A stretch of 62,246 bases of DNA, the filler included. It is 15 parts of 15 records of this genome, joined end to end, with 100 filler letters (N's around TTAATTAATTAA, not from the genome) between each part and the next. Parts side by side here need not be neighbours in the genome. Positions count along the whole stretch, not along the records: positions 14,416 to 17,647 come from SRR7504441_14960; 14 more parts are not named here. The stretch is one strand, 5' to 3'. Under the pieces are notes generated by a model. It made no database searches and was not told the origin of the DNA. It was given only the letters and a program-made list of their open reading frames with translations. Positions 14,438-15,481 of this stretch are shown one piece after another (positions within the stretch are counted from its first letter, which is position 1; every line of letters begins with the position of its first letter). A program made the position numbers and the translations under genes.

Positions 14438-15481
14438 ATGGGTGAGCTTAGGACTCCTGCCACCGGCTAGTCACCTGCCCGGGTCGAGGGTCGGTGTCGC
14501 TGCGGGCGTGGCACATGCCGCTTCCGGTCCCCTCTATCTATAGTGCTCGGGTGGCCCGTGATTAGCCTGCAACTCCTCCGAACGGCGACGTGGTGAGGAA
14601 CACTCATGCGCAACCTTCAGTCTTCAACATGAGGCCACCCTGTCAGCCCTGTCCCGGCCCGCGTCCAGCTGCCCGCGCTCGGCCGCTGACCCCCCGGTAC
14701 AGGTCGCCGTCCTGCCAAATGCTACCGCTACCAAAAGAACAAGCCCTACATCAAGTCACGCTACTGCCGTGGTGTGCCCGATGCCAAGATTCGCATCTAC
14801 GACCTCGGCCGTAAGAAGGCCAGCGTCGACGACTTCCCGTTCTGCGCTCACCTGGTGTCCGACGAGCTCGAGCAGGTGCCAGCCCGACCGCGCGCCGTGC
14901 CGACCGCTGTGTCGACAGGTGTCGTCAGAGGCGCTCGAGGCTTGCCGGATTGCGTGCAACAAGTACATGACCAAGAGCTCTGGTAAGGATTCGTTCCACA
15001 TGCGTATCCGCGTCCACCCTTTCCACGTGCTCCGTATCAACAAGATGCTTTCGTGCGCCGGGGCTGACAGGTGTGAACCACCCTGCGTGTGTGTGCCCTG
15101 CACTCAGAGCAGCGATAGCGCCGCCCGGCCCTGGCGGGGGCGGTGTTTCTGAGCCGGGTGTGTTCCAGGCTTCAGACCGGTATGCGTGGTGCGTTTGGCA
15201 AGTCGTACGGCACAGTCGCTCGTGTGAAGATCGGCCAGGTTCTCATCTCCATGAGGTGCAGGGACCCAGTCGGGAAGCACGCGCTTGAGGCTCTGCGCCG
15301 TGCCAAGTATAAGATTGCTGGCCGCCAGAAGATCTACACCTCGCGCAAGTGGGGCTTCACCAAGGATTTGAAGCAGGACTTCATTGATGGTCGCAAGTCC
15401 GGTCGGATCATAAAGGACGGAACCGGCGTGCAGTACGACAACGGCCACGGCCCGCTCCAGAACTGGATCCGCCGGCAGTAG
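14438..15481 (+). CDS. RPL10: 60S ribosomal protein L10 (uL16)
   Basis: Exons 14438-14441, 14703-14875, 14919-15070, 15169-15481 give [28 protein letters not shown]...[30 protein letters not shown]; all three introns GT-AG. Confidence 0.98.
14549..14640 (+). ncRNA. Intronic box C/D snoRNA (predicted LSU rRNA 2'-O-methylation guide)
   Basis: Perfect 8-bp terminal stem GGGTGGCC (14549-14556) / GGCCACCC (14633-14640); box C GTGATTA 14558, D' CCGA 14578, C' GTGAGGA 14593, D ATGA 14629; guide CTTCAGTCTTCAA 14615-14627. Confidence 0.85.

Follow-up and report, generated by a model that had tools for sequence, protein, structure and literature searches.

The first intron of an RPL10 gene in a 62,246-nucleotide stretch of DNA (the window, meaning this whole stretch) raised the question of whether it encodes a functional box C/D snoRNA with compensating non-consensus boxes, and which nucleotide such an RNA would modify. 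The element at 14549–14640 (plus strand, 92 nt including the terminal stem) was confirmed, as far as its sequence allows, as a genuine-looking intronic box C/D snoRNA, as the original prediction had it. Taking together the sequence, a chance test, a family model, and the alignment with the related locus L038, the best explanation as a whole, a functional box C/D snoRNA gene encoded in an intron and having a predicted guide, is likely.

The host gene RPL10/uL16 lay on the plus strand and was composed of exon 1 (ATGG, 14438–14441, placed by exon joining and translation) and the exons 14703–14875, 14919–15070, and 15169–15481 (all within 14703–15481, placed by spliced contigs, translation, and Pfam); the four exons joined gave a clean 213-aa protein with the N-terminus MGRRPAKCY. 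Exons 3 and 4 matched Pfam Ribosomal_L16, the exon 4 protein had the database assignment 'Eukaryota', and the runs with RPL10 exons were seawater/marine metatranscriptomes. Introns 2 and 3 (43 and 98 nt) were each represented by spliced metatranscriptome contigs in four of four runs. Intron 1 (14442–14702, plus strand, 261 nt, GT..AG), the snoRNA host, was delimited by sequence and frame continuity, and no contig bridging it was present among those listed for the four metatranscriptome runs. One X11 contig stopped 7 letters past 14702, too short an overhang for placement. Intron 1 had been described as about six times the usual length, which held relative to the 43-nt intron but not relative to the 98-nt one (ratio 2.7).

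From 5′ to 3′ on the plus strand, the predicted snoRNA displayed the following organization: the 5′ arm of the terminal stem, GGGTGGCC (= GGGUGGCC; 14549–14556); a single unpaired C between this arm and box C (14557); box C, GUGAUUA, with U rather than G at position 6 (14558–14564); a spacer or possible D′ guide, GCCTGCAACTCCT (= GCCUGCAACUCCU; 14565–14577), the complement of which is AGGAGUUGCAGGC; box D′, CCGA (14578–14581); an internal hairpin ACG-GCGA-CGU between D′ and C′ (14582–14591); box C′, GUGAGGA (14593–14599); the D guide, a 13-mer CTTCAGTCTTCAA (= CUUCAGUCUUCAA; 14615–14627), complementary to LSU rRNA UUGAAGACUGAAG and occurring only once within the window; box D, AUGA, with A rather than C at position 1 (14629–14632); and the 3′ arm of the terminal stem, GGCCACCC (14633–14640), abutting box D. 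The two arms formed eight Watson–Crick pairs with no mismatch, and the boxes, their order, and the 8-bp stem, all read directly from the sequence, were as first described. The element had the properties of its class: (i) boxes near the ends, with both G-A dinucleotides intact for the kink-turn; (ii) a terminal stem joining C and D (8 bp, one-base offset before C); (iii) an antisense element of at least 10 nt, here 13 nt without a mismatch, separated from box D by 1 nt, and with a complement known from the LSU of other eukaryotes; and (iv) internal C′ and D′ boxes in the right order and degenerate, as is usual for box C/D snoRNAs. Under the standard pairing scheme, the change of box C G6 to U together with that of box D C1 to A restores a Watson–Crick pair. 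According to the accessible part of PMC5824354, 4.2% of fungal snoRNAs have a substitution, mostly to A, at the first base of box D.

A pattern scan was applied to both strands (R-TGAT[G/T]A followed by [C/A]TGA, with box C position 6 able to form a Watson–Crick pair with box D position 1 and at least 4 bp in the flanking stem), and it gave exactly one match in the window, namely the snoRNA itself with its 8-bp stem; 200 first-order Markov windows gave 0.11 matches per window with stems of at least 4 bp, 0.02 with at least 5 bp, and 0 with at least 6 bp. The architecture was beyond chance, because the window had this one match and none of the 200 simulated windows had any with a stem of at least 6 bp. 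The minimum free energy of −32.3 kcal/mol was unremarkable (z = −1.5), and such ordinary folding would fit motifs that came together by chance in a GC-rich intron, but this explanation is effectively refuted by the Markov-window test, the conservation in L038, the box pair kept in 59/80 metagenomic loci, and a family-model match (see below).

A metagenome scan with the pattern TGATNA-N35-65-CTTCAGTCTTCAANNTGA, which left the two variant box positions free, gave 80 loci. T and A were found at both free positions in 59 of them (chance expectation 1/16), and ATGA was found in 65 (59 with TGATTA, five with TGATCA, and one with TGATGA), while only one locus had the canonical G + C pair and the stem was absent there. 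With both positions free, the 59/80 loci made the U-A pair of the C/D motif, originally termed compensatory, a fixed state of the family and not a quirk of one copy. Among family stems of at least 4 bp, the commonest geometry was that of the window, with a single base left unpaired before box C and the stem directly adjoining box D, and many members had a hairpin between D′ and C′. The defining string of the family, CUUCAGUCUUCAA followed by N-AUGA, with box C UGAUUA, was identical in the window. Family model R1, built from 41 of 58 unique cores with the window excluded (family alignment A2), was sequence-only because RNAalifold gave no consensus pair for the heterogeneous alignment; it produced one match on the window, 14559–14636 (27.3 bits, E 1.7e-7). 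Since the window supplied the pattern for the family search, that search and this match are partly circular. The family and the window shared the D guide, the U-A variant in C/D, the one-base stem offset, the D′–C′ hairpin, and the overall length, and L038 had the host intron in common with the window as well, but they differed as follows: (i) many members had the D′ guide UUCAUGCACCAC (an 18S Gm1271-type guide) and a second group had AUUACAUUUUUACUCU, while the window and L038 each had an element of its own; and (ii) G-C in C′/D′ was found in the window and L045 alone.

No match to Rfam 15 was obtained for the whole window at the gathering threshold, for 14400–14760 at E up to 10, or for 20 of the 80 family loci at the gathering threshold; at E up to 10, L013, L010, and L038 gave only sub-threshold generic or D′-guide similarities. 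The element had been presented as belonging to no recognized named family, which agreed with the lack of an Rfam 15 match in the window: the window snoRNA belongs to a widespread, apparently uncatalogued family, and this family is possibly unnamed. The Rfam consensus of plant snoU36a (RF01302) has the same non-consensus UGAUUA + AUGA pair, but its guides differ, L013 reached 14.4 bits against it (gathering score 45), and the window gave no match.

The sequence comparison was also applied to L038. Its RPL10 shared 94.7% identity over 209 aa with that of the window, and its snoRNA was likewise located in the first RPL10 intron on the same strand, with 67 nt (62 nt in the window) to the 3′ splice site and a 5′ intron flank of 123 nt (107 nt in the window); the position of intron 1 differed by 6 nt between the two. 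Judged by shared genomic position, L038 is the orthologue of the predicted window snoRNA. Conservation in the intron alignment was limited to the stem, boxes, hairpin, and D guide, and the flanks had diverged; conservation of the boxes in a relative had been set beforehand as a test, and the snoRNA core was kept in RPL10 intron 1 of L038. A guest snoRNA that stays in the first RPL10 intron of two relatives despite diverged flanks points to selection on the RNA, not on the intron. L038 harbored the hairpin UACG-GUGA-CGUA at the place of the window hairpin, and its C′/D′ boxes were the canonical GUGAUGA/CUGA; therefore, the G-C of the window in C′/D′ (U-U in L038, both sides altered) represents a true double change, as had been supposed before any relative was at hand for comparison. 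Judged by eye, L045 differed from the family members closest to it by the same two C′/D′ changes.

The same boxes could be read as signs of a decaying family copy, i.e., a snoRNA pseudogene in the intron that is neither assembled nor functional: C′ GUGAGGA and D′ CCGA are off consensus, the D′ guide has no target found (see below), and expression was not seen in four metatranscriptomes, an uninformative contig set. Such decay is very unlikely given the perfect 8-bp stem, the intact G-A dinucleotides of C and D, the perfect 13-nt guide, the two C′/D′ changes that are complementary and not random, and a core kept relative to L038 while the intron flanks diverged. The location, intron 1 of a gene for a ribosomal protein, would also accord with an intronic structure regulating RPL10 splicing or expression, not a trans-acting RNA, and L038 may correspond to a transcript keeping intron 1 yet without introns 2 and 3. 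However, the same RNA type was present in 79 other loci, and tblastn detected RPL10 within 2 kb (fetched flanks) in none of them besides L038, so the conserved unit travels independently of RPL10; moreover, conservation coincides exactly with the snoRNA boxes and guide, and a regulatory structure is even less probable than a pseudogene. A functional snoRNA gene is the preferred reading.

The D guide would act on UUGAAGACUGAAG, a target that we infer from the LSU rRNA of other eukaryotes; this 13-mer belongs to LSU domain III, where it lies at or beside helix 47 and 37 nt downstream of the U24 site. All six small contigs tested that carried TTGAAGACTGAAGTGG were Rfam LSU_rRNA_eukarya, and in 10 of 11 loci also having the U24-site motif, the predicted A was at +37 from the U24-site C (Cm1437 equivalent), which bears out the placement of the complement just 3′ of the U24-targeted region. 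The fifth nucleotide upstream of box D pairs with the first A of UUGAAG, the count being the same as in the original prediction, and this A (yeast A1474 equivalent) is probably the 2′-O-methylated nucleotide because the D+5 rule counts five nucleotides upstream of box D.

Two known guides are directed to the same region. The box C/D guide U24/snR24/SNORD24 (RF00069) addresses the same LSU stretch, and the predicted A is 37 to 24 nt downstream of its sites Cm1437, Am1449, and Gm1450 (accessible part of PMC8817022), but its guides differ from that of the window, its boxes are canonical, and the window has no RF00069 match. The window element was rejected as U24/SNORD24: no Rfam match was present on 14400–14760, and its guide pairs 24–37 nt farther 3′. 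L010 scored 17.2 bits against RF00069, compared with a gathering score of 41. Arabidopsis At1gCDbox23.1 (AtsnoTAIRsnoRNA6), the guide for 25S Cm1479, addresses the same helix region (H47), its site being 5 nt upstream of the predicted A, as given in the accessible parts of PMC8583080 and PMC11542601 (from Cm1447, Cm1479 is at +32 and the predicted A at +37); it methylates another nucleotide and would therefore need a different guide register, by which description it is set apart.

The predicted Am was absent from the Nm sites, whether mapped or predicted, of Saccharomyces cerevisiae, human, Arabidopsis, and Dictyostelium in the accessible parts of PMC8817022 and PMC8583080, from those of two further plants and the other columns of the table in PMC11542601 (accessible part), from the Neurospora crassa sites in PMC2780460 Table 1, and from the Schizosaccharomyces pombe sites in parts 1–2 of 3 of PMC11971394 supplement 1. 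In open-access full text, the A1474/A1476 site, the guide or target 13-mers, and the UGAUUA/AUGA pair were undescribed as a snoRNA or site. The letters of the target 13-mer had literature matches in two small-RNA papers, which give the rRNA sequence itself.

An unmethylated A in all these maps would suit a real box C/D snoRNP with a non-methylating or partly methylating guide, serving as a chaperone of domain III rRNA folding or processing, for which the accessible parts of PMC11971394 supply precedents: snR190 is a box C/D snoRNA without guiding activity at its complementary site, and snR107 has a methylation-independent role in 60S biogenesis. S. pombe snR107 itself is unrelated to the window element, its site being Gm2483 (same source). 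The chaperone role is nevertheless unlikely, since the guide is in exact D+5 register with 13 bp of perfect Watson–Crick pairing; and the unmethylated site says little because none of the mapped organisms was shown as a carrier of a family member.

For the D′ guide, the earlier statement that it has no identifiable target stood for the SSU, 5.8S, and partial LSU rRNAs tested: no recurrent complement of at least 10 nt was found in 11 partial LSU loci or in 40 18S-motif loci; six of the 40 were checked with Rfam, of which five contained complete SSU + 5.8S + the LSU 5′ end and one a partial SSU. Because no D′ target was found in these rRNAs, the C′/D′ motif probably mainly builds a second protein-binding site. 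Two further observations are leads only: (i) the L135 LSU had GAGTTGCAG within a variable stretch, roughly 100 nt upstream of the D target; and (ii) in the window and L038, the D′ elements had 7- and 9-nt complements to 18S AAGUUGUUGCAG, in the wrong register for methylation. The 18S Gm1271 guides snR40/AtsnoR21/Z221-R21b/Me18S-Gm1358 have the D′ guide CAUGCACCAC in common with many family members (L013 scored 20.9–21.6 bits against these guide families, E 0.02–0.05), but their boxes are canonical and their D guide is another, unlike the window. The window element was rejected as an 18S Gm1271 guide: CAUGCACCAC (complement of 18S GUGGUGCAUG) was absent, and its D′ element was GCCUGCAACUCCU, with no recurrent complement in five complete SSU rRNAs or the other fragments.

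Intronic snoRNAs are established to mature by splicing, debranching, and exonuclease trimming. By this pathway, RPL10 intron 1 would be spliced out, its lariat debranched, and the RNA trimmed by exonucleases as far as the 8-bp terminal stem; this stem, together with the C/D kink-turn, in which U-A replaces the usual G-C beside the U-U and G-A pairs, would be shielded by the core proteins Snu13/15.5K, Nop56, Nop58, and fibrillarin. A small GNRA hairpin closes the C′/D′ motif. The 13-nt D guide would then pair with UUGAAGACUGAAG in LSU, and fibrillarin would 2′-O-methylate the first A of UUGAAG. No contig covered 14417–14668 in four marine metatranscriptomes, a gap uninformative about snoRNA expression because these were assembled contigs, mostly from poly(A) libraries.

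The window gene itself is routine, a predicted methylation-guide snoRNA in a ribosomal-protein intron, and the value it adds is modest. For the family, we tentatively suggest, as a possibility falling somewhat short of probable, an old and widely spread box C/D family fixed as UGAUUA/AUGA and overlooked by annotation, which would install a 2′-O-methyl on an LSU domain III A (corresponding to yeast A1474, at or beside H47) absent from the compared maps. The predicted helix 47/domain III methylation site would be new relative to the compared yeast, fission yeast, plant, human, and Dictyostelium maps. The oversight by annotation is possibly due to the non-consensus box state, and the fixed U-A offers one explanation of how finders that rely on the consensus may overlook genes of this kind. 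A whole snoRNA family that keeps U-A for the kink-turn G-C provides natural evidence that this position must pair and that G-C is dispensable there.

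The putative box C/D snoRNA at 14549–14640 (+) was located in intron 1 of RPL10/uL16, and the gene anatomy, a snoRNA core conserved in the intron of an orthologue, a place in a family whose variant boxes are fixed, and complementarity, perfect and in register, to conserved LSU sequence could all be established at the level of sequence. The window was composed of about 15 short contigs chained by N44–TTAATTAATTAA–N44 linkers, with 28 N runs located between 4368 and 59133, and features across joins cannot be taken as neighbours. The contig with the snoRNA (14416–17647) came from a eukaryote, and the public runs sharing its exons were seawater or marine metatranscriptomes. 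RPL10 was composed of exon 1 (ATGG; 14438–14441, +), intron 1 (GT..AG, 261 nt; 14442–14702, +), and exons 2, 3, and 4 (14703–14875, 14919–15070, and 15169–15481, respectively; +); the spliced exons encoded a 213-aa protein with the N-terminus MGRRPAKCY, and exons 3 and 4 matched Pfam Ribosomal_L16/L10e, which identified the host gene as RPL10/uL16. Exact spliced contigs for intron 2 (43 nt) were found in 4/4 metatranscriptome runs, as were spliced contigs for intron 3 (98 nt; two equivalent joint placements); none of the contigs listed from the four runs bridged intron 1 or covered 14417–14668, and since these were assembled contigs from mostly poly(A) libraries, the missing cover says nothing on small RNA. 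Further 3′ of RPL10, an open frame at 16923–17120 (+) contained GQGFAFVFFKQDIGAQIALENPRVVIKGKTANV, resembling by eye the RNP-1 region of an RNA-recognition motif.

Direct reading of the sequence placed the stem, boxes, and guide exactly where the original prediction had them, all on the + strand: 5′ stem arm GGGUGGCC (14549–56), unpaired C (14557), box C GUGAUUA (14558–64), 13-nt spacer GCCUGCAACUCCU (D′ element; 14565–77), box D′ CCGA (14578–81), small hairpin ACG-GCGA-CGU (14582–91), box C′ GUGAGGA (14593–99), a 29-nt spacer 3′ of C′ whose last part was the D guide CUUCAGUCUUCAA (14615–27), a single C between guide and box D (14628), box D AUGA (14629–32), and 3′ stem arm GGCCACCC (14633–40). 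An architecture scan (purine plus UGAU[G/U]A, then [C/A]UGA 45–130 nt on, with a Watson–Crick C6–D1 pair and a flanking stem) recovered this snoRNA as the sole site of the entire window, while 200 Markov-simulated windows gave 0.11 and 0.02 matches per window for stems of at least 4 and at least 5 bp, respectively, and none for stems of at least 6 bp. The folding energy was unexceptional (z = −1.5), as is usual for box C/D RNAs.

Related loci were collected from metagenomes with the pattern TGATNA–N{35,65}–CTTCAGTCTTCAANNTGA, in which box C base 6 and box D base 1 were left unconstrained. The scan yielded 80 loci with 58 unique cores, and box C position 6 and box D position 1 were T/A (UGAUUA with AUGA) in 59/80 loci (chance expectation, about 5/80) and in 40 of the unique cores, C/A in 5/80, canonical G/C in 1/80, and other combinations in 15/80. 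The only canonical locus, L026, had no stem and looked like a chance match; the 15 loci with other combinations mostly lacked a stem or the purine preceding UGAU. Real family members had in common a purine 5′ of UGAUUA and a C′ box; their terminal stems were short, the commonest geometry being one unpaired base 5′ of box C and none 3′ of box D, and many displayed a hairpin between D′ and C′ whose arms varied yet stayed complementary (e.g., GACCC/GGGUC, GAUCC/GGAUC, and GACGC/GCGUC). A family model was built, with the window excluded, from 41/58 unique cores; L018 and L039 were omitted for want of a recognisable C′ box, and every other T/A or C/A core was used; RNAalifold on the alignment of these 41 cores gave no consensus pairs, and thus the model was sequence-only. 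It matched the window once (14559–14636, 27.3 bits, E = 1.7e-7), a match with some circularity, since the search pattern already contained the guide and part of the box sequence.

In the standard C/D kink-turn scheme, box D position 1 pairs with box C position 6. Read from that scheme rather than computed, the C6–D1 pair of the family was U–A in place of G–C. Plant snoU36a likewise has the Rfam consensus UGAUUA with AUGA; 4.2% of fungal snoRNAs have another base, usually A, at position 1 of box D (PMC5824354), and a small fraction of Dictyostelium snoRNAs has AUGA (PMC8817022). The U–A variant itself is therefore known elsewhere, and the notable point is its fixation across the whole family.

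Local tblastn of the window RPL10 against all 80 loci matched L038 alone (94.7% identity over 209 aa, uninterrupted), and this orthologue carried its snoRNA in the first RPL10 intron on the same strand. The window and L038 had, respectively, terminal stems GGGUGGCC/GGCCACCC and GGCC/GGCC, box C GUGAUUA and AUGAUUA, box D′ CCGA and CUGA, internal hairpins ACG-GCGA-CGU and UACG-GUGA-CGUA, box C′ GUGAGGA and GUGAUGA, an identical 13-mer D guide (CUUCAGUCUUCAA), and box D AUGA in both; the snoRNA started 107 and 123 nt from the 5′ splice site and ended 62 and 67 nt before the 3′ splice site. When the introns were aligned, conservation was confined to the snoRNA core and did not extend into the flanks, the pattern expected under selection on the RNA. 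The proposed compensatory change in the C′/D′ pair was borne out, with G and C in the window versus U and U in L038, both strands having changed from U–U to a Watson–Crick pair; both changes also appeared by eye in family locus L045, which has CCUA and UGAGGA where the family members closest to it have CUCA and UGAUGA, a reading that hinges on the D′ assignment. The first intron followed CDS nt 4 in the window (14438–14720) and nt 10 in L038 (712–1019, −), 6 nt apart and both in phase 1; the intron seems to have slid while keeping its guest snoRNA. The L038 record began in exon 1 and stopped in the 3′ UTR, and it encoded RPL10 residues 5–213 without interruption (101–727, −), with intron 1 kept and introns 2 and 3 absent; it may represent either a relative without these two introns or a partly spliced transcript retaining intron 1.

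The LSU target was queried with the 16-mer TTGAAGACTGAAGTGG from the small-RNA table of PMC5085782, and a Toxoplasma probe has the same sequence (PMC3453492). The nematode "miRNAs" miR-3526 and miR-716b (PMC5085782) and the Toxoplasma probe Tgo-novel-12-1 (PMC3453492) carried LSU rRNA sequence, and these "miRNAs" are probably rRNA fragments. TTGAAGACTGAAGTGG was present in 71 loci of a bacterial and archaeal genome collection, and 6/6 small contigs tested among them were Rfam LSU_rRNA_eukarya, i.e., eukaryotic contamination; many small contigs in these assemblies (L081–L191) were likewise eukaryotic rRNA contaminating public prokaryote genomes. AGATCTTGGTGG lay at most 60 nt upstream of TTGAAGACTGAAGTGG in 11/71 loci, and the distance from the C of AGATC to the first A of TTGAAG, which lies further 3′, was 37 nt in 10/11 of these and 41 nt in the remaining one. 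This C was identified as the U24 site, because only it fits the known offsets of Am1449 (+12), Gm1450 (+13), and human Cm2352 (+14); human rRNA presumably differs within the target 13-mer. The five bases upstream of AUGA were C, A, A, C, and U, with U facing the first A of UUGAAG, and the guide–LSU duplex had 13 perfect Watson–Crick pairs; it stops there because the two flanking Cs, one next to box D and one 5′ of the 13-mer, had only U or C opposite them in the rRNAs examined. With the U24 C at Cm1437 in Saccharomyces cerevisiae, Cm1439/Cm1447 in Arabidopsis (two numberings), Cm1673 in Dictyostelium, Cm1418 in Neurospora crassa, and Cm2338 in human, according to PMC8817022, PMC8583080, and PMC2780460, the predicted A (+37) would be A1474, A1476/A1484, A1710, and A1455 in the first four, respectively. 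Equating Schizosaccharomyces pombe A1483/G1484 with S. cerevisiae A1449/G1450 put it at about A1508 in S. pombe. In Arabidopsis, the predicted A was 5 nt 3′ of Cm1479, which is assigned to H47 of domain III (PMC11542601).

The D′ side was variable. Many family members (L013, L004, L015, L043, and similar loci in family alignment A2) had the D′ guide CAUGCACCAC of 18S Gm1271 type, which resembles that of the Gm1271 guides snR40, AtsnoR21, Z221, and Me18S-Gm1358 (sub-threshold Rfam E values of 0.02–0.05), and thus some members may already be filed under those names; a second group (L003, L007, L010, and others) had the different D′ element AUUACAUUUUUACUCU. Family members have exchanged D′ guides, with the D guide and boxes unchanged. 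The L038 D′ element was unlike that of the window in length and sequence, and no recurrent complement of at least 10 nt to GCCUGCAACUCCU was present in 11 partial LSUs and 40 SSU-motif loci (of six of the latter tested with Rfam, five were complete SSU plus 5.8S plus LSU 5′ end and one was a partial SSU). A weak lead came from comparison of L135 (~1901) and L114 (~2393): one eukaryotic LSU, that of L135, contained GAGTTGCAG, a 9-nt complement to the window D′ element, roughly 100 nt on the 5′ side of the D target, where the sequence is variable among species (other LSUs having GAGTAGGCAGGCGTGG). The window C′/D′ might, tentatively, be mainly structural.

Rfam 15 had no matching family. The predicted Am was absent from the N. 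crassa predicted targets (PMC2780460) and, within the portions consulted, from the Dictyostelium/yeast/human/Arabidopsis methylation table (PMC8817022), the Arabidopsis methylation table (PMC8583080), the multi-species plant review table (PMC11542601), and the S. pombe high-confidence list (supplement parts 1–2 of 3; PMC11971394). Full-text literature held no description under the guide or target sequence, the box pair, or the site names; judged from Rfam 15 and this literature, the family is provisionally unnamed.

By analogy with other intronic box C/D RNAs, the snoRNA would be released by splicing, debranching, and exonucleolytic trimming, Snu13, Nop56, Nop58, and fibrillarin would assemble on the kink-turn, and methylation would fall opposite the fifth base upstream of box D; at 62–67 nt, the spacing to the 3′ splice site reportedly falls within the range that Hirose and Steitz (2001) found favourable for splicing-coupled processing. 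The original description was correct, and the snoRNA is a real element of an ordinary kind, of mild interest in two respects: a predicted methylation site missing from the maps examined, as far as these were consulted, and a family-wide U–A variant of the kink-turn.
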